Below the pieces are notes generated by a model that saw nothing but the letters and a program-made list of their open reading frames with translations, was not told the DNA's origin and ran no database searches. A stretch of DNA of 64,000 bases. Source: Escherichia phage T4. How positions within the stretch are numbered: the first letter of the stretch is position 1; each line of letters opens with the position of its first letter. The translations under genes and the position numbers were made by a program. Shown here one piece after another: positions 10,640 to 63,685 of this stretch. The stretch is taken from the sequence record MZ375356.1. The stretch is one strand, 5' to 3'.

Positions 10640-12099
10640 CAGATATTGTACTGAATGACTTACCATTCGTTGACGGCCCTCCTGCAGAGGGCCAGAGCCG
10701 CATTTCCTGGATTAAAAACGGCGAAGAAATATTAGGAGCTGACACACAGTATGGAAGTGAAGGCTCAATGAATAGACCTACGGTTTCTGTACTAAGAAAT
10801 GTTGAAGTTCTTGATAAAAACATTGGAATACTTAAAACATCTTTAGAAACCGCAAATAGTGATATTAAAACAATTCAGGGCATCTTAGATGTATCTGGTG
10901 ATATTGAAGCTTTGGCCCAAATAGGTATCAATAAAAAGGATATTTCTGACCTCAAAACGCTAACCAGTGAACACACAGAAATATTAAATGGAACTAATAA
11001 TACGGTTGACAGTATTCTTGCTGATATTGGTCCATTTAACGCCGAGGCCAACTCTGTATACAGAACGATCAGAAATGATTTACTGTGGATAAAGCGTGAA
11101 CTTGGACAATACACTGGTCAAGATATTAATGGTCTTCCTGTTGTAGGAAATCCTAGTAGTGGAATGAAGCATCGCATTATTAATAATACTGATGTCATCA
11201 CTTCGCAGGGAATACGTTTAAGCAAATTAGAAACAAAATTTATTGAATCTGATGTAGGTTCTTTGACCATTGAAGTTGGTAATCTTCGTGAAGAGCTTGG
11301 ACCGAAACCACCATCATTTTCACAGAACGTTTATAGTCGTTTAAATGAAATTGACACTAAACAGACAACAGTTGAGTCTGACATTAGTGCTATTAAGACC
11401 TCAATAGGATATCCAGGAAATAATTCGATTATCACGAGTGTTAATACAAACACTGATAATATTGCATCTATTAATTTAGAGCTAAATCAAAGTGGAGGTA
11501 TTAAACAGCGTTTAACCGTTATTGAAACTTCCATTGGTTCAGATGATATTCCTTCGAGTATTAAAGGTCAAATCAAAGATAATACAACTTCAATCGAATC
11601 TCTAAATGGAATCGTCGGTGAAAACACTTCATCTGGCTTAAGAGCGAATGTTTCATGGTTAAACCAAATTGTTGGAACTGATTCTAGCGGTGGACAACCT
11701 TCTCCTCCTGGGTCTCTTTTAAACCGAGTTTCTACAATTGAAACTTCTGTTTCAGGCTTGAATAACGATGTTCAAAACCTACAAGTAGAGATTGGTAATA
11801 ACAGCACAGGAATTAAAGGGCAAGTTGTAGCGTTAAATACTTTAGTAAATGGAACTAATCCAAACGGTTCAACTGTTGAAGAGCGCGGATTAACCAATTC
11901 AATAAAAGCTAACGAAACTAACATTGCATCAGTTACACAAGAAGTGAATACAGCTAAAGGCAATATATCTTCTTTACAAGGTGATGTTCAAGCTCTCCAA
12001 GAAGCCGGTTATATTCCTGAAGCTCCAAGAGATGGGCAAGCTTACGTTCGTAAAGATGGCGAATGGGTATTGCTTTCTACCTTTTTATCACCAGCATAA
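10636..12099 (+). CDS. wac: fibritin (whisker) Wac
   Basis: 487-aa ORF; C-terminal foldon-like motif [27 protein letters not shown]; heptad-rich middle region. Confidence 0.92.
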
Positions 12100-28716: not shown

Positions 28717-29271
28717 TATGATAATGATACTTCATTAGAAGTAACGCTTAGTGCATCATAATCTGTCGCGGTTACTTGGGCTACGCATTTAATTCTTTTT
28801 ACTCCACTTGTAGTTGGAGTATAGCTAAATGTAGAGTTAGTTTCTCCACCAACTTGTGAATCATCTACATACCACTGATACGTAGCAGATGCTCCATCAG
28901 GTTGAGAAGCTAAGGCAGCAGTAAATTGAACTGGGGTTCCAATCACTCCAGCCGCAGGACTAGCAGGAGTTACGGCTAAGGTAGTCGTCTGTGTCTTATT
29001 TTTAACTGTGATAGTTGTTGTCGCTTCAGCCGTTTCCGGGCCTCCTTCAGAAAGTGTATTTGTTGCAACTACTTTAATAGTCTTTTGACCGGCAGGTCCT
29101 TTTAGCATAACTAAAAGTTGCTTCAGCTCCATCTTGTGGAACATTATCTACGCTCCAAGCATATGTAATAGTTCCGCCTCCAGTTTGACCACTGGGTGTA
29201 GCAGTAAACTGCTTAGTTTCATCAATAACCCCTGTAGGTGTTTTAGGAGTTATATCAACTGTAAAAGTCAT
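28716..29271 (-). pseudogene. hoc: outer capsid protein Hoc, frame-disrupted and lacking the C-terminal half
   Basis: Ig-like N-terminal ORF (29074-29271, MTFTVDITPKTPTG...) and a second Ig-like ORF (28716-29144) in another frame; 556 nt covers about 185 codons, versus about 376 aa for T4 Hoc. Confidence 0.8.
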
Positions 29272-30009: not shown

Positions 30010-30538
30010 ATGTACCACTTTGTATATGAAACAACAAATCTAATAAATGGTAAAAAGTATATAGGAAAGCACTCTACTGATGACTTGAATGATGGTTACC
30101 TTGGTTCCGGTAAGGCAATTCAGCAGGCTATAAAGAAATATGGTGAAAACAATTTCTCTAGAACAATACTAAAAGAGTTTAAAACTTCCGAAGAAGCGTA
30201 CATGTATGAAGAAGAAATTATAACTCCTGAACTAATAAAAAGCAAAAATTATAATATGAAACCTGGTGGAATTGGTGGAATTGGTGGAATTGTTATGACT
30301 ACAGATGTTATAGCAAAGATGAAAGAATCTTCCGCTAAAAGATTTGAAAACTCACCGGGCACGGTATTAGGTAAAACTTGTTACTAATGGAACTAAAAAT
30401 ATTTTTATTAAACCTGGAGAACTTGTTCCAGAAGGATTTGTAAAAGGGATGGTTCATCCTAATAGAAAGTCCAGAAAAGGATGTAAAGTCAAACCGACTA
30501 CCACAGGAACTTTTTGGGTCAATAATGGCGCAAAATAA
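30010..30538 (+). pseudogene. segE: GIY-YIG homing endonuclease SegE, frame-disrupted
   Basis: 125-aa ORF with GIY-YIG motif (KKYIGKHSTD...GYLGSG) stops at 30387; the C-terminal continuation (TNGTKNIFIKPGELVPEGFVKG...) runs in the +1 frame to 30538; 529 nt is not a multiple of 3. Confidence 0.75.
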
Positions 30539-30629
30539 ATTAATACAACCAGACGGTATTATTCCCGACGGATTTATTAAAGGTCGTCTCATGAAAAGAG
30601 ATTCTAAAGGCAAATTTAGTAAGGCAATT

Positions 30630-32138
30630 ATGGATATTAAAGTACATTTTCACGACTTCAGTCATGTACGCATCGATTGTGAAGAGAGCACGTTCCACGA
30701 ATTAAGAGATTTCTTTTCGTTTGAGGCCGATGGATATAGATTTAATCCTCGCTTCAGATATGGCAACTGGGATGGACGAATCCGTCTTTTAGATTATAAT
30801 CGTCTTCTTCCATTCGGCTTAGTCGGGCAAATTAAAAAATTCTGTGATAATTTTGGCTATAAAGCCTGGATTGACCCACAAATTAACGAAAAAGAAGAAT
30901 TATCAAGAAAAGATTTTGATGAATGGCTTTCTAAATTAGAAATCTATTCAGGAAATAAAAGAATTGAACCGCACTGGTATCAAAAAGATGCAGTGTTCGA
31001 AGGATTAGTTAATCGTCGTAGAATTCTTAATCTTCCAACATCTGCAGGTAAATCTTTAATTCAAGCTTTGCTTGCGCGATATTATTTGGAAAATTATGAA
31101 GGTAAAATTCTTATCATTGTTCCAACAACTGCTCTGACAACTCAGATGGCTGATGACTTCGTCGACTATCGTTTATTCAGCCATGCAATGATAAAGAAAA
31201 TTGGTGGCGGAGCATCAAAAGATGATAAATATAAAAATGATGCACCAGTCGTTGTTGGTACATGGCAAACTGTAGTAAAACAACCGAAAGAATGGTTCTC
31301 ACAGTTTGGAATGATGATGAATGATGAATGCCATCTTGCTACAGGAAAAAGTATTTCATCTATCATATCAGGTTTAAATAACTGCATGTTCAAATTCGGT
31401 TTGTCTGGTTCATTACGTGATGGCAAAGCCAATATCATGCAGTATGTTGGAATGTTTGGTGAAATATTTAAACCAGTAACGACTTCTAAATTAATGGAAG
31501 ATGGACAAGTAACTGAGCTAAAAATTAATAGTATTTTTCTTCGCTATCCCGATGAGTTCACTACTAAATTAAAGGGAAAAACTTACCAAGAAGAAATAAA
31601 AATTATTACTGGGCTTAGTAAAAGAAATAAATGGATCGCTAAATTAGCTATTAAGCTTGCGCAAAAAGATGAAAACGCTTTTGTCATGTTTAAACATGTA
31701 TCGCATGGTAAAGCTATTTTCGATTTAATTAAAAATGAATACGATAAAGTTTATTACGTATCAGGGGAAGTTGATACCGAAACCCGCAATATAATGAAAA
31801 CCTTAGCTGAAAATGGTAAAGGAATAATTATAGTAGCTAGTTATGGTGTATTTTCTACTGGTATTTCAGTTAAAAATCTGCATCACGTTGTTTTAGCGCA
31901 CGGTGTTAAATCAAAAATCATTGTATTACAAACAATCGGTCGTGTATTACGTAAGCATGGTTCTAAGACAATAGCAACAGTCTGGGACCTCATAGATGAC
32001 GCAGGCGTCAAGCCAAAATCTGCTAATACGAAAAAGAAATATGTTCATTTGAACTATCTTTTAAAACACGGCATTGATCGTATTCAGCGCTACGCAGATG
32101 AAAAATTTAATTACGTAATGAAAACAGTTAATTTATAA
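30630..32138 (+). CDS. uvsW: UvsW helicase (SF2, recombination/repair)
   Basis: 502 aa from MDIKVHFHDF; Walker A (PTSAGKS) and DEAH-like (MNDECH) motifs; the ORF is open 35 codons further upstream (30525). Confidence 0.92.
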   Translation: MDIKVHFHDFSHVRIDCEESTFHELRDFFSFEADGYRFNPRFRYGNWDGRIRLLDYNRLLPFGLVGQIKKFCDNFGYKAWIDPQINEKEELSRKDFDEWLSKLEIYSGNKRIEPHWYQKDAVFEGLVNRRRILNLPTSAGKSLIQALLARYYLENYEGKILIIVPTTALTTQMADDFVDYRLFSHAMIKKIGGGASKDDKYKNDAPVVVGTWQTVVKQPKEWFSQFGMMMNDECHLATGKSISSIISGLNNCMFKFGLSGSLRDGKANIMQYVGMFGEIFKPVTTSKLMEDGQVTELKINSIFLRYPDEFTTKLKGKTYQEEIKIITGLSKRNKWIAKLAIKLAQKDENAFVMFKHVSHGKAIFDLIKNEYDKVYYVSGEVDTETRNIMKTLAENGKGIIIVASYGVFSTGISVKNLHHVVLAHGVKSKIIVLQTIGRVLRKHGSKTIATVWDLIDDAGVKPKSANTKKKYVHLNYLLKHGIDRIQRYADEKFNYVMKTVNL

Positions 32139-32643: not shown

Positions 32644-32802
32644 TTATACAACTCTCATATGCATATCAATGCCCATATCTTTAGAATAAAAATATTCATC
32701 AAGATATCCGGCAAATTTTCCTTTAATATAAAGGACATCTTCACCACACGGGTGGTCGGCCAGGATACGAATATCCTGACGCTTAAGATTATGCTTTTTC
32801 AT
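32644..32802 (-). CDS. 52-aa small protein (positional equivalent of T4 uvsY.-1); start uncertain
   Basis: Manually translated MKKHNLKRQDIRILADHPCGEDVLYIKGKFAGYLDEYFYSKDMGIDMHMRVV; the frame is open further upstream without an ATG. Confidence 0.4.
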   Translation of the reverse strand: MKKHNLKRQDIRILADHPCGEDVLYIKGKFAGYLDEYFYSKDMGIDMHMRVV

Positions 32803-32865
32803 TAAGAATTGAATTTCCGTTTCAAATTCTTCTTCATAATTAAAAGCATCATCAATGCTATCTCA

Positions 32866-33279
32866 TTATTTTCCAGCCTCAAATGCTCGCATGTCTTGAA
32901 TATGCTTAATAGCAAATCCACGTGATTTAATAGCATCAAGAGCTCCGCTACAGAAATCTAATAAAATCCCCCAATACTGCAACGAGGTATCAACCTTTAA
33001 AACATCCTTATCCGCTGATAGAACTGTCTTCATTTCTGATTTCTCGTAACGATCCATACTAAATTCATCACCATCTCCTCGTCCCGAGTAGTAGTCTAAT
33101 CTAGCTTTAAGAGCAACTTTTTTCTGTGCTTCAATTCTAAGCATTTCCTTTTTAATACTTGAATGCTTATTAAGCCATTTACTATATAACATCACATTAT
33201 TAGCTGCTTCATACTGTAATTTAGTCGAATCTATAAACACATCTTTCTTCAATTCTTCTTGAAGATCTTCTAATCTCAT
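32866..33279 (-). CDS. uvsY: recombination mediator UvsY
   Basis: 137-aa ORF starting MRLEDLQEELKKDVF. Confidence 0.92.
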   Translation of the reverse strand: MRLEDLQEELKKDVFIDSTKLQYEAANNVMLYSKWLNKHSSIKKEMLRIEAQKKVALKARLDYYSGRGDGDEFSMDRYEKSEMKTVLSADKDVLKVDTSLQYWGILLDFCSGALDAIKSRGFAIKHIQDMRAFEAGK

Positions 33280-33296
33280 ATTGTTCTCTATTCAAT

Positions 33297-33335
33297 TGTT
33301 ATTGGTTGTTATTGGATGTTATTGGATGTTATTGG
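33297..33335. repeat. four tandem 10-bp repeats (t/a)TGTTATTGG in the uvsY leader
   Basis: Direct reading: ttgttattgg ttgttattgg atgttattgg atgttattgg. Confidence 0.9.
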
Positions 33336-33349
33336 ATGGACTTAGATTC

Positions 33350-33376
33350 ATTATACCACGTTTTAACGTGAAGCAT
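33350..33376 (-). promoter_or_regulatory. MotA-dependent middle promoter for uvsY (MotA box ATGCTTCA, -10 TATAAT)
   Basis: Minus strand reads AATGCTTCA-N13-TATAAT; MotA box at 33369-33376 and -10 at 33350-33355; overlaps the 3' end of gene 25. Confidence 0.65.
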
Positions 33377-33774
33377 TATACTCTATTACTGGAAGCCAGC
33401 TGCAGTTTTATCTGCTCAATATCATCAGGATTATCGATGACCGAAAAGCGTATTTCTACTATCAGAGTATAATCGTCATAAACGGGTATCACATTAACTG
33501 CTAATTTATCAATACGTGGCTCATAGTTTCTTACTGCGCTTTCGATATTGCGTTCAACCGTGTCAGCAGTAAGAGGAGTCATATTTTCAAAAAGCTGGTC
33601 TGATAAATCACATCCAAATTCAGGGTCAAACGGTCTTGAACCTTTTCTTGTTGTAATAATTCCCAAAAGACTGTTTTTAATTGACCTTAATCCAAGCGAT
33701 CTGGAAACGTCTTTGTTCCAATCCATTTTCATTTCCGGGTCAATATCAGAATAAAGCTTATTAATATTTGCCAT
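33376..33774 (-). CDS. 25: baseplate wedge protein gp25
   Basis: 132-aa ORF starting [22 protein letters not shown]. Confidence 0.92.
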   Translation of the reverse strand: MANINKLYSDIDPEMKMDWNKDVSRSLGLRSIKNSLLGIITTRKGSRPFDPEFGCDLSDQLFENMTPLTADTVERNIESAVRNYEPRIDKLAVNVIPVYDDYTLIVEIRFSVIDNPDDIEQIKLQLASSNRV

Positions 33775-34400
33775 TATAGTAACTCAAAGAACTCTTTGAG
33801 GCCTCTTATTACGTGAGCATGGGTTTTTCCACACTCTGGACACTTAATTGGAACAGCCAAATAAACGGTAGGCTTTAAAAGCATATCTTTTATAGCTACA
33901 ATATCTGACTCTGTGATGATAGAATATAAATCTTCTAGTTCCTTTTCATTTAAGTCTTCAACTGGAATGCTTTCCCCGTTAGCATGAATCGTTTCTATAC
34001 ATGATACTATCATGTGGGCTATATTTTTATCATCAAAAATTTTAGGGTATCGGAATTTAATTTTAATGTCACCTAGTGTATACCAGAGGTCTTCTGGTGC
34101 ATCTATTTGTGTATGTAATAGATTTATATGGGTTGGTATTTCAGTTCCACAGGTGCACTTCCAGGAGTTTTCGTGATTAACTTCACCGAGAGAATGTGCC
34201 CATAAATGAATCAACAATAGTTCTGATTCTTGGCGGTTTAAATCTTTTGCATTTGTGCAGTCTTTGATTAGCTTTTTAACAATTACTTCTACGGAACCAT
34301 TATTTTTGGCAGTAATAAGTTCTAGATATTCTTTAAGCGTGAATGCGCGACAATTGATTATTTTAGAACCAACTCTCACATCAAATTTGTATTCATACAT
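33774..34400 (-). CDS. 26: baseplate hub protein gp26
   Basis: 208-aa ORF matching T4 gp26 position and length. Confidence 0.88.
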
Positions 34401-45786: not shown

Positions 45787-45851
45787 AGGAACACGTAATA
45801 TTTCACTCGCGTGATCGCAGTGGTGAGCGAGATCGTCAATAACAAATTACG

Positions 45852-46097
45852 TTATTTCTCTTTTGCTTTTTTGAACAACTCTTCTTTTGAAGAATCATGA
45901 CTACACATCAGTACTTCTGAGAAAGCACCAGGAAAAAGAGCATTCAAATTAAATTGACGATTTAATAGAGCGTCAATAGAATCACCCAATGCTGTAACAG
46001 CAACAAAATTATAATCTTCTTTTAATTTGTTAATTACACAGAGCATCTTTATATGGAGACAAGTAACGAATAAAATCCGAACGATTGTATTTTTCAA
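45852..46097 (-). CDS. hypothetical 81-codon ORF with a non-ATG (TTG) start; may be spurious or an alternate-frame ORF
   Basis: Overlaps the tail of a longer open frame (46030-46272) in another phase. Confidence 0.3.
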   Translation of the reverse strand: MKNTIVRILFVTCLHIKMLCVINKLKEDYNFVAVTALGDSIDALLNRQFNLNALFPGAFSEVLMCSHDSSKEELFKKAKEK

Positions 46098-46272
46098 TTA
46101 ACTTGACGCCAAGTTCTTCATCACAGTTAAAGAGTTTACCAGGAGAAATAAATTTCTCATCTTGGATCATTTTTAAAATATGTTCTAACGGAAGATTATA
46201 TTTCTGAGCAAAATAAGGAAGGCCTGATTGCCAGCTTAAACATACTCCATCAATATCAGTTAATAGTAGGCT

Positions 46273-46734
46273 TCATAGAGAGTCTCTTAATAGGTTTAAC
46301 ACATCAATAAATTCAGCTTCGGTTAGTATTGTATCATCTTTTGTTAGACCACTAGCAATGCTGTGCTTCAAAACTTTTCCTTTCGAGGCTTGTAATGCAT
46401 CACGAAAGCCCTTGTTTTGAATCGCTGCTTCAAAATATGCATTTGTGTATAATTCTTTCCACGCCGGGGAGTATCTTGAAAACGGAACTCCAAGCCAAAA
46501 GAGGGTCCCACGGTCCTGAGCTCTAGCATAAGACCTTCCAGCTTGTTGGGCGGCAAGCCCGGATAACCCAAATATACGTTGTTGTTCAACATTTTTCACC
46601 TTACACCCTTGGAGGAATCCTTCAAGACCTCCAAATTGAATACCATCCATAACGAAAGGCCATTGGGCGAAATTACTTAATGCACATGATGGCCACCTAA
46701 AATTGCTTCTAATCTCTAACTCAGACATTTTCAA
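46273..46734 (-). CDS. NADAR/YbiA-like (DUF1768) domain protein
   Basis: 153-aa ORF; LSNFAQWPFVMDGIQFGGLEGFLQGCKV resembles the N-terminal NADAR signature (E. coli YbiA FSNFAAWPIKVDGKTW...EHYFQAQKF); assignment is by eye, not by search. Confidence 0.5.
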   Translation of the reverse strand: MKMSELEIRSNFRWPSCALSNFAQWPFVMDGIQFGGLEGFLQGCKVKNVEQQRIFGLSGLAAQQAGRSYARAQDRGTLFWLGVPFSRYSPAWKELYTNAYFEAAIQNKGFRDALQASKGKVLKHSIASGLTKDDTILTEAEFIDVLNLLRDSL

Positions 46735-46927
46735 TGCTTATAATTTCAACATCAGCCCAATGACCATAGCAAGGAAGACGAAATTCAACTGGCCAGTTAG
46801 GGTCCTTTTCTAATATAATAGACTCAACTTGTGGTTCTTCGTGTTCATCAGTATACGGATTTTTATCTGTTACTTTATATGTGACCTTAATGTACTGAAT
46901 TCCAAAAATCTTATTAATTATATTCAT
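46721..46927 (-). CDS. hypothetical 68-aa protein
   Basis: ORF; translationally coupled to neighbours. Confidence 0.55.
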   Translation of the reverse strand: MNIINKIFGIQYIKVTYKVTDKNPYTDEHEEPQVESIILEKDPNWPVEFRLPCYGHWADVEIISIENV

Positions 46928-47121
46928 ACTAATTCCTTTAATCCGTAGATAGGAGATAATTCATCACCCATACGAAGGTCTTCATTTCCATCTACCCAGG
47001 AAACAATATAAGCCTCTTTTATTTGAATACCACTCCATTTAAATGGAGGTAGAACCTTAGAAATTAATCCAGGTATACCAACTCCCTTTAATTCAACAGT
47101 TTGACCTAAAAAGAATTTCAT
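46924..47121 (-). CDS. hypothetical 65-aa protein
   Basis: ORF; TAATG overlap with the upstream gene. Confidence 0.55.
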   Translation of the reverse strand: MKFFLGQTVELKGVGIPGLISKVLPPFKWSGIQIKEAYIVSWVDGNEDLRMGDELSPIYGLKELV

Positions 47122-47401
47122 TAGAACCTCATCTGAAAACCGTGCGATTTAACATTACCGCCGCCAATATCAGAAATGTTAATTTCACGCGCAATTGAAG
47201 GGTCAATGTCAATTTCACGATTGAGTTTAGTGATAGCTAAAGTATCACGCCCATTTACAGTACGGAACTCTAAAGGACAAACCACATCAACGTAGTTTTA
47301 ATCGATTCGCTAGTAAGTTGCAAATGTGCAGGAAGGTCTTTAGGTGCCTTTGAGAAAACCACTTCACAGAAATTTTTGCGGGTATCAAAATAAGTAGTCA
47401 T
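47121..47401 (-). pseudogene. hypothetical ~93-codon gene split across two frames
   Basis: ATG at 47401 gives MTTYFDTRKNFCEVVF...SIKTT then a stop; a second frame continues ...VVCPLEFRTVNGRDTLAITKLNREIDIDPS... to the stop at 47121; the junction lies in an A-run. Confidence 0.45.
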
Positions 47402-47422
47402 AAACATAATATTTTCCTCAGT

Positions 47423-47438
47423 AAGGGGCTGAAGCCCC
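47423..47438 (-). other. hairpin (aggggc-TGAA-gcccct)
   Basis: Inverted repeat read directly. Confidence 0.5.
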
Positions 47439-47448
47439 TCATTTTATT

Positions 47449-47812
47449 TTAAATATCAAATTCATTAAGAACTACATCAAAGATTGCTTCAAGATGCTCA
47501 GGTAGCTCTGTTACTCAGAATATGACGAATCCAAGTTTTAACTAAGAGTTTACGATTAGCACCATTCCAGCAAGGATGAGTCCCTAAATCGCGTTGGCGG
47601 AAATCATCATCCAGAGCGATTTTGAAGTTGGAACCTTTCATCGTGATTGAAACCGTGATACCGTTTTCAAATCGCATATAAACGTAGTTAGGAGTCATAT
47701 ACTGTTCAATTTCGCATACTGATCCATTTTGATGTTTCCAGAGGCAAATAGTATCAATAGAACCTGCAATACCATTAGAAACATATTTACGTTCAAAGTT
47801 AATGTAGTTCAT
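47449..47812 (-). CDS. hypothetical protein; 104-aa ORF (47498-47812) with a possible out-of-frame C-terminal continuation
   Basis: After the stop at 47498 the +1 frame reads VTELPEHLEAIFDVVLNEFDI to a stop at 47449. Confidence 0.45.
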
Positions 47813-47994
47813 TTTTATTCTCCGAGATGTTTAATTGCGGTACAGGTATAATATCATATCCTGTACCAAAGTAAACAATTATTTTACTACTTTCCAATGC
47901 TGCATGTCAAGTTTACCAACTTTTTTCATCTTCTCAATTAAGCGTTCTGCACGTTGGCGAGCTAACATAATGCCATTCGCCTAATTCATTTTGT

Positions 47995-48207
47995 TCAATT
48001 TTTCCAACGAACTGTATTCAATTCATAAATCCAACCAGTAAAGAAATTATGAACTTGAATTGTAAAGGTGAAATCTGTTCCCATACCTTCTGTTGTTTCT
48101 ACTTCAATAATATCACCTTCAACTGCCATTAAGAACCACATAGTTTCATCATATTTACCATTGAAGCATTTAGTTTTAACTGCAGCGTTCAGATTAATCG
48201 TTTTCAT
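47995..48207 (-). CDS. hypothetical 70-aa protein
   Basis: ORF; position only. Confidence 0.55.
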   Translation of the reverse strand: MKTINLNAAVKTKCFNGKYDETMWFLMAVEGDIIEVETTEGMGTDFTFTIQVHNFFTGWIYELNTVRWKN

Positions 48208-51498: not shown

Positions 51499-51556
51499 AT
51501 TATTAGCGATTTTGGCTACACTACTTCTACGATTTTAGAGTAAGTCGGAAACATAT

Positions 51557-51747
51557 TTACCTCACATAATTTTCTTCAAGCCAATCAATAACATCCAACG
51601 CATTATCAAAAGTTGAACCATCTACTCTGTCTTCTGTTTCATAATCAAGAACATCTGCCTACTCTTCCGTCAACAATAGGCCATAGACAAAATAGATATT
51701 TCTTTTCTTTTTCAATTTTATCACAAAGACGATAAATCTTTTCTAGG

Positions 51748-61485: not shown

Positions 61486-62493
61486 CATTATGTTCAGATA
61501 AGGTCGTTAATCTTACCCCGGAATTATATCCAGCTGCATGTCACCATGCAGAGCAGACTATATCTCCAACTTGTTAAAGCAAGTTGTCTATCGTTTCGAG
61601 TCACTTGACCCTACTCCCCAAAGGGATAGTCGTTAGGCATTTATGTAGAACCAATTCCATTTATCAGATTTTACACGATAAGTAACTAATCCAGACGAAA
61701 TTTTAAAATGTCTAGCTGCATCTGCTGCACAATCAAAAATAACCCCATCACATGAAATCTTTTTAATATTACTAGGCTTTTTACCTTTCATCTTTTCTGA
61801 TATTTTAGATTTAGTTATGTCTGAATGCTTATGATTAAAGAATGAATTATTTTCACCTGAACGATTTCTGCATTTACTACAAGTATAAGCAGAAGTTTGT
61901 ATGCGAACACCGCACTTACAAAACTTATGGGTTTCTGGATTCCAACGCCCGTTTTTACTTCCGGGTTTACTGTAAAGAGCTTTCCGACCATCAGGTCCAA
62001 GTTTAAGCATCTTAGCTTTAACAGTTTCAGAACGTTTCTTAATAATTTCTTCTTTTAATGGATGCGTAGAACATGTATCACCAAACGTTGCATCAATATT
62101 GTATCCATTAATTTTAGAAAGCTCTTTAATCCAAAAATTTTCTCGTTCAATAATCAAATCTTTCTCATATGGAATTTCTTCCAAAATAGAACATAAACAC
62201 ATTACCATGTTTGTTAAAAGACCTCTGAAGTTTTATAGAAGAATGGCATCCTTTTTCTAAATCTTTAAAATGCCTCTTCCATCTCTTTTCAAAATCTTTA
62301 GCACTTCCTACATATACTTTATTGTTTAAAGTATTTTTAATCTGATAAATTCCGCTTTTCATAAATACCTCTTTAAATATAGAAGTATTTATTAAAGGGC
62401 AGTCCTACAATTTAGCACGGGATTGTCTACTAGAGAGGTTCCCCGTTTAGATAGATTACAAGTATAAGTCACCTTATACTCAGGCCTCAATTA
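61486..62493 (-). mobile_element. group I self-splicing intron in td (1008 nt here) carrying I-TevI
   Basis: Minus strand: exon ...CTTGGGT | TAATTGAGGCCTGAGTATAAGGTGAC... to ...ACATAATG | CTACCG; the 5' sequence is recognised as the td intron. Confidence 0.9.
61633..62362 (-). pseudogene. I-TevI: GIY-YIG homing endonuclease I-TevI, frame-disrupted
   Basis: N-terminal ORF MKSGIYQIKNTLNNKVYVGSAKDFEKRWKRH...NKHGNVF then a frame change; the C-terminal ORF carries the zinc finger CKCGVRIQTSAYTCSKC and DNA-binding domain; 730 nt is not a multiple of 3. Confidence 0.8.
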
Positions 62494-63663
<1,170 letters not shown>

Positions 63664-63685
63664 TCAATGACACATAATATTTTCC

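Follow-up and report, generated by a model that had tools for sequence, protein, structure and literature searches.

The 64,000-nucleotide stretch of Escherichia phage T4 DNA analysed here (record MZ375356.1; hereafter the window) carries four tandem copies of a 10-bp unit in the short interval between gene 25 and uvsY. What are these four copies, and how did they arise? A preliminary description, made from the sequence alone, had read them as an exact, AT-rich and iteron-like array, a candidate for the unwinding element of a T4 origin at uvsY or for a protein- or RNA-binding array.

The uvsY promoter, leader and origin

The features of the locus, with the evidence on which each was placed, are as follows.

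33376–33774, minus strand: gene 25 (baseplate wedge subunit); its TAA stop (33378–33376) overlaps the MotA box (ORF list and homologous T4 annotation)
33369–33377, minus strand: MotA box AATGCTTCA (sequence; M77695 annotation; PMC2988021 consensus)
33357–33370, no strand: palindrome CACGTT-AA-AACGTG in the promoter spacer (sequence; partly conserved in relatives)
33350–33355, minus strand: −10 element TATAAT (sequence; M77695 annotation)
33343, minus strand: inferred +1, an A (T4 115371 from PMC2988021, mapped via AF158101 and alignment)
33296–33335, minus strand: four tandem decamers, +9 to +48 of the uvsY leader (sequence, Tandem Repeats Finder, shuffles)
33316–33335, minus strand: 20 bp extra relative to wild-type T4, equivalent to the two promoter-proximal units or to CATCCAATAA twice (alignments with AF158101, M77695, MT984581 and T4_3t3)
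33273–33343, minus strand: region matching the unwinding element (DUE) and R-loop zone of oriF, exact boundaries putative (AF158101 rep_origin 115321 and the DUE description in PMC3016281)
33280–33295, minus strand: 3′ leader TTGAATAGAGAACAAT, unchanged (sequence; identical in all aligned Tequatrovirus sequences)
32866–33279, minus strand: uvsY coding sequence, 137 aa (ORF list; comparison with MT984581)

All promoter elements of uvsY are readily recognized on the minus strand. The MotA box (33377–33369) is the same AATGCTT that is marked 'mot box' in GenBank M77695, and the −10 TATAAT (33355–33350) comprises the same bases that are labelled 'TATA_box' there. The two are separated by a spacer of 13 nt (33368–33356). 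Box, spacer and −10 fit the published middle-promoter consensus and spacing, in which (a/t)(a/t)(a/t)TGCTTtA is located 12 ± 1 bp from the −10 (PMC2988021). The MotA-type promoter of the preliminary description is therefore present, with the sole qualification that the range given for it starts at 33376, one base inside the MotA box. A generic sigma-70 promoter scan did not flag the uvsY promoter, as expected for a MotA promoter, which lacks a −35 element. The spacer palindrome (CACGTTAAAACGTG) is perfect and fills the gap between the MotA box and the −10. The corresponding spacer in RB3, ime09 and sb3, CACGTATAAACGTG, is still palindromic with 5-bp arms; one arm is broken in fPS-90, and Mosigvirus has no palindrome. 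A second TATAAT (33375–33380) straddles the end of gene 25 (its last sense codon and its stop) and the beginning of the MotA box.

The start of the PuvsY transcript is listed at T4 position 115371 in the review by Hinton (2010; PMC2988021, Table 1). When this published coordinate is mapped through its AF158101 position and alignment, it falls on window position 33343, an A that is the seventh nucleotide past TATAAT. Downstream of the −10, the minus strand reads GAATCT, then AAGTCCAT, then the decamers. The mapped start lies 8 nt upstream of the array, which is transcribed and occupies +9 to +48 of a 64-nt leader. As had been described, four tandem decamers (33335–33296) precede the uvsY ATG. 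Transcript mapping that placed the start downstream of the repeats had been named as evidence against that description; since the published start is upstream of them, this is not what is found. The ATG itself is at 33279, and a Shine-Dalgarno-like GAG likely lies a few bases 5′ of it, within TTGAATAGAGAACAAT. The coding sequence (32866–33279) has no DNA differences from that of wild-type T4 MT984581, and UvsY matches that of the sibling mutant T4_7t1 at 100% by tblastn.

AF158101 annotates rep_origin oriF (oriuvsY) at 115321, 7 nt into uvsY, with the uvsY transcript as the primer RNA. In the window, the locus has the same position between gene 25 and uvsY, and its flanks are identical to those of AF158101 and M77695 apart from the repeat. 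The locus is the T4 replication origin oriF, or ori(uvsY), together with the MotA-dependent uvsY middle promoter and its 5′ leader. That T4 has an origin at uvsY with a middle promoter and a DUE, as the preliminary description stated, is documented in the AF158101 rep_origin feature, the M77695 annotation and the review by Kreuzer and Brister (PMC3016281).

According to that review, about 100 bp is enough for oriF function on plasmids, and the minimal origin consists of the middle promoter and the DUE. The transcript persists in the DUE as an R-loop, as is known for wild-type oriF, leaving the non-template strand single-stranded, and the R-loop RNA, probably after processing by RNase H, primes leading-strand synthesis (PMC3016281). 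In vitro, a preformed R-loop in the DUE suffices and the promoter is dispensable (PMC3016281). R-loop formation is independent of specific sequence, and heterologous unwinding elements can substitute for the DUE (PMC3016281). The titles of references 11 and 14 in the same review report the locus as a recombination hot spot.

The boundaries of the DUE used here rest on this review and on GenBank annotation. In wild-type T4, the decamers occupy +9 to +28, in the middle of the stretch from the start (+1) to the annotated origin point (+51); in the window, the equivalent of that point, which ends the DUE zone, is at +71. The array thus lies within the transcribed leader and inside the region described as the DUE, at the position that had been proposed for it.

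Relative to wild-type T4 oriF (AF158101, M77695), the window has the same position, MotA box, spacer, −10, leader flanks and uvsY, and the published architecture of a middle promoter with an R-loop-holding DUE (PMC3016281). It differs in having four decamers instead of two. The 20 added bp lengthen the leader and the DUE and leave the promoter, the ribosome-binding region and UvsY untouched. Promoter, origin and the part played by the downstream leader all belong to established T4 knowledge, and the array is a known element that varies in copy number.

Composition and predicted properties of the array

The array consists of two copies of CCAATAACAT followed by two of CCAATAACAA, all contiguous on the minus strand (33335–33296; consensus CCAATAACAW). 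The term 'exact' applies to it only as two variants, since the four units differ: two end in T and two in A. Tandem Repeats Finder placed the repeat at 33297–33338 with a period of 10, 4.2 copies, 96% matches and a score of 77, the top score in the 64-kb window. All four exact occurrences of the decamer in the window are inside the array (0.55 ± 0.69 expected; 0 of 100 shuffles reached four). With one mismatch allowed, 22 further sites were found against about 15 expected, and thus there is no meaningful dispersed family.

The AT-richness attributed to the array is real but modest: it contains 30% GC (70% A+T), compared with 36% GC (64% A+T) for the window. The RNA-like strand is free of G for 47 nt (33340–33294). 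No other run of this kind in the window is as long, although some reach 46 nt; the same run would be 27 nt in the wild type. By nearest-neighbour calculation, 20-bp segments in the array rank at the 25th–38th percentile for instability in the window, and 60-bp segments over the leader are among its least stable ~6–9%. The least stable stretch, at about 33300–33250, is just downstream of the array. Since the decamers are not a local stability minimum, sequence alone leaves the DUE behaviour of the region unexplained. The free-energy difference between the RNA–DNA and DNA–DNA duplexes is near zero across the array, slightly better than the window mean and unexceptional.

The array RNA is predicted to be 57–76% unpaired within the leader. 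With one, two, four and five copies, the ribosome-binding region has a predicted accessibility of 0.54, 0.62, 0.67 and 0.67, respectively. No Rfam match was obtained at E ≤ 1 for 32800–33800 on either strand. We discarded a structured RNA element on these grounds (no Rfam match, array predicted unpaired). An exceptionally AT-rich or unstable element was likewise discarded: the decamers are just mildly below average in stability, and the G-less run is nearly matched elsewhere. The decamers form a moderately AT-rich, G-less, unstructured stretch, and nothing in them points to a specific structured element or to one of unusual instability.

Copy number in relatives and in the mutagenised lineage

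Copy number, which the preliminary description had called easy to compare between isolates, proved to be so: the comparison gave a series of one, two, four and five copies. A 701-nt query around the array matched 14 T4-type records (T4, T4T, RB55, RB59) at 97.1% over 681 nt. In most other Tequatrovirus genomes the match covered 671 nt, and in one record, OL964745.1, it covered 711 nt; these differences are multiples of 10. Match length (681 nt) and alignments show that each of the 14 ordinary T4-type records has two copies. Seven other Tequatrovirus phages (T2, T6, RB3, ime09, sb3, fPS-90 and F26) have one copy. Within one mutant series, T4_3t3 (OL964735.1) has two copies and T4_7t1 (OL964745.1) has five, with four in the window. 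The leader flanks are near-invariant across the copy-number series. The implication that four copies are a feature of T4 does not hold, as wild-type T4 has two and four or five are found only in the laboratory-mutant lineage.

The leader is 44 nt long in wild-type T4 and 64 nt long in the window, with the 20 bp added at +9 to +28. All added units are the T variant, CCAATAACAT, which shows that copying started from the promoter-proximal unit, in the register CATCCAATAA. These alignments argue that one copy is the ancestral Tequatrovirus state, that two copies are a T4-specific duplication, and that further expansion occurred only in the mutant lineage.

Outside Tequatrovirus, no tandem array was found in the uvsY leader of any of six genera (Mosigvirus, Karamvirus, Jiaodavirus, Dhakavirus, Krischvirus and Pseudotevenvirus). 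Most of these have a TATAAT-type −10 upstream of uvsY, and AATGCTTCA is found upstream only in Mosigvirus. In the first five, gene 25 is the immediate upstream neighbour of uvsY, and in Pseudotevenvirus (RB43) an unnamed gene occupies this place. Searches of IMG/VR returned five contigs with a single-copy, T4-like version and no array of three or more copies, and both two-copy matches have unrelated flanks. In metagenome contigs, 14 arrays of at least three copies were found, all 14 of them unrelated minisatellites without T4 flanks. These contigs (L020–L033, for example Ga0126342_10020708) carry CCAATAACAA or CCAATAACAT minisatellites of up to at least nine copies. In these unrelated contigs, a motif of low complexity seems to have recurred by chance.

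The closest record to the window is 'Mutant Escherichia phage T4 clone T4_7t1' (OL964745.1), with 99.9% identity over 50 kb. T4_3t3 (OL964735.1), from the same series, is essentially wild type over 50 kb. Differences of the window from T4_3t3 and wild-type MT984581 include 32 small deletions, of which 23 remove 2 bp, six remove 3 bp and three remove 1 bp; 13 of the 23 2-bp deletions are written as TA or AT. There are 11 single-nucleotide differences, of which nine are G:C to A:T. A deletion of ~0.58 kb (junction at 28722–28729) takes the 3′ part of hoc, which encodes the head outer capsid protein; it is common to the window and T4_7t1 and absent from T4_3t3 and the wild type. The genes hit by frameshifting 2-bp deletions are dispensable (segD, hoc, segE, uvsY.-1, 30.x, cd.x and frd), and several in-frame 3-bp deletions are found elsewhere, for example in gene 29. 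Examples of mutation sites are 25448, 29106, 30382, 32859, 45839–48011, 51511–51657 and 62094–63672.

Only two insertions distinguish the window from T4_3t3 and the wild type, and both are unit gains at two-copy repeats, namely the uvsY decamer and a 9-mer in segE. The segE repeat, TGGTGGAAT, goes from two to three copies at 30264–30292 (3.2 copies, compared with 2.2 in the wild type and T4_7t1). Within the segE repeat region (30253–30292), a 3-bp deletion lies just upstream of the gained unit.

The window and T4_7t1 have in common the hoc deletion, many mutations, including many of the 2-bp deletions, and the T-variant expansion. They differ in decamer number (four and five) and in private small deletions in each. 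This combination of common and private mutations indicates that the two split from an already mutated ancestor and are now one decamer apart. The mutation pattern of the window looks like the outcome of repeated chemical mutagenesis with selection for viability; that the mutagen was a TA/AT-directed crosslinker such as psoralen is a guess. In the literature, we found no paper describing the mutant series, and one in which OL964735 serves as the reference sequence. The four copies are a derived, laboratory-arisen state.

Origin and meaning of the extra copies

Taken with the published account of oriF, these observations suggest how the array came about. We consider it very probable that the locus is the known oriF and PuvsY bearing a laboratory-arisen, tolerated slippage expansion in the DUE and uvsY leader, and not an iteron or dedicated binding array. 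Following the literature, MotA/AsiA-modified RNA polymerase would start at about 33343, and the nascent RNA would stay hybridised to the template as a persistent R-loop in the DUE, the ~50 bp that follow the promoter. Leading-strand synthesis would be primed by this RNA, probably after RNase H has processed it, and the displaced strand would admit the gp41/61 primosome, with gp59 speeding gp41 loading. The decamers would be a plain part of the leader and DUE.

Duplication of the promoter-proximal unit would most likely have occurred by slipped-strand misalignment or unequal recombination at the existing direct repeat, and the perfect 20-bp repeat, once formed, may have eased further steps. The locus would be permissive, being non-coding and having a DUE that tolerates sequence change. 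The expansion would be tolerated because DUE function is not sequence-specific. Origin activity itself may add instability, given the displaced single strand, the nearby starts of DNA synthesis and the hot-spot reports.

The alternative that survives best is an adaptive expansion: in the mutagenised lineage, phages whose G-less leader and DUE had become longer while staying free of structure would have been favoured through higher oriF firing or UvsY output. As a mediator of recombination and repair, UvsY would help a phage whose DNA is damaged repeatedly, and insertions account for just 2 of ~35 indel events in the window. The uvsY decamer locus nevertheless changed at least twice in the lineage (from two to four here; five in the sibling), whereas ordinary T4 laboratory strains are all still at two copies. 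The slight rise with copy number in the predicted accessibility of the ribosome-binding region points the same way. However, once two perfect copies exist, more slippage is expected without selection, and the predicted RNA effect is small. Most other two-copy repeats of the window are in coding sequence, where a 10-bp gain would be a frameshift, so that their stability tells little about the mutation rate. On balance, we regard selection for the expansion as unlikely. It is similarly doubtful that decamer copy number is a selectable tuning knob of oriF, whereby the step from two to four or five copies would have been favoured under repeated mutagenesis because a longer G-less, unstructured DUE and leader makes R-loops more persistent and so raises origin firing, or raises UvsY supply.

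A second alternative is that the decamers act like iterons and bind a replication initiator or some other protein that recognizes DNA or RNA. They recur every 10 bp, about one helical turn, beside an origin, and another T4 origin, oriE, has 12-nt iterons of unknown role (PMC3016281). Direct repeats at a T4 origin are, however, all that the two have in common. At oriE, the repeats stand at even distances and are conserved where relatives have syntenic regions (PMC3016281), whereas the uvsY decamers abut one another, occur once in most relatives and have expanded only in a laboratory lineage. Iteron-type origins have spaced repeats of ~17–22 bp and a nearby initiator gene, and the uvsY decamers have neither: the units are contiguous 10-bp blocks, and the neighbours are gp25, gp26, uvsY and uvsY.-1/-2, with no initiator gene among those flanking the array (gp25, UvsY and uvsY.-1). 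Nor is an array conserved in related replicons, with one copy in the seven Tequatrovirus phages and none in the six other genera. There are no exact copies outside the array in 64 kb, and heterologous sequence can stand in for the DUE (PMC3016281). The earlier suggestion of an iteron-like, protein- or RNA-binding array finds no support, given this absence of conservation and of dispersed copies, the replaceability of the DUE (PMC3016281) and the fact that the decamers are not a stability minimum; we consider it very improbable. An assembly or sequencing artefact is more improbable still, since although assemblers can miscount short tandem repeats, the array is just 40–50 bp, shorter than one read, its flanks are perfectly collinear, and an independent GenBank record of the same series is also expanded (five copies, with the same T-variant units).

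The expanded oriF can instead be set beside other R-loop-primed origins. T4 oriG, or ori(34), which lies outside the window, likewise has a MotA-dependent middle promoter and an A+T-rich DUE with an R-loop primer (PMC3016281); it has little sequence homology to oriF, according to the same review. ColE1-type origins also use a promoter transcript that forms a persistent RNA–DNA hybrid and is cut by RNase H into a leading-strand primer (PMC3016281 and general knowledge). By contrast, ColE1 needs a folded RNA II, a G-rich hybrid segment and control by the antisense RNA I, whereas the uvsY leader is G-less, predicted to be unstructured and without known antisense control.

What is new at this locus is the expanded allele alone: 20 bp added to the DUE of a viable phage, and 30 bp in its sibling. 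No paper describing an expanded oriF allele was found in the literature. A tolerated expansion of this kind fits the published view that the DUE acts by its physical properties and not by a specific sequence. At most, the series of one, two, four and five copies would allow DUE length to be tested against R-loop formation, origin firing and UvsY expression. If copy number did prove to be a tuning knob, the same series would provide alleles for the question of R-loop control at T4 origins.

The window also carries a warning, in that its features may stem from laboratory mutagenesis and not from natural selection. A 2-bp deletion at 32859, 7 nt downstream of the uvsY coding sequence, frameshifts uvsY.-1, and the wild-type 74-aa uvsY.-1 ORF is broken into short ORFs, for example 32644–32802 and 32802–32939. 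The ORF list also contains a 537-aa 'UvsW' (30525–32138) that begins 35 codons upstream of the usual MDIKVHF start. This upstream extension was probably opened by frameshifts at the end of segE, and the 537-aa form is likely an ORF-calling artefact and not a new protein. Finally, 12 bp, AAGCTTTGGCCC, at 10907–10918 in the fibritin (wac) region are present in the window and in T4_3t3 and absent from MT984581; this is a difference between T4 stocks and not a mutation of the lineage.
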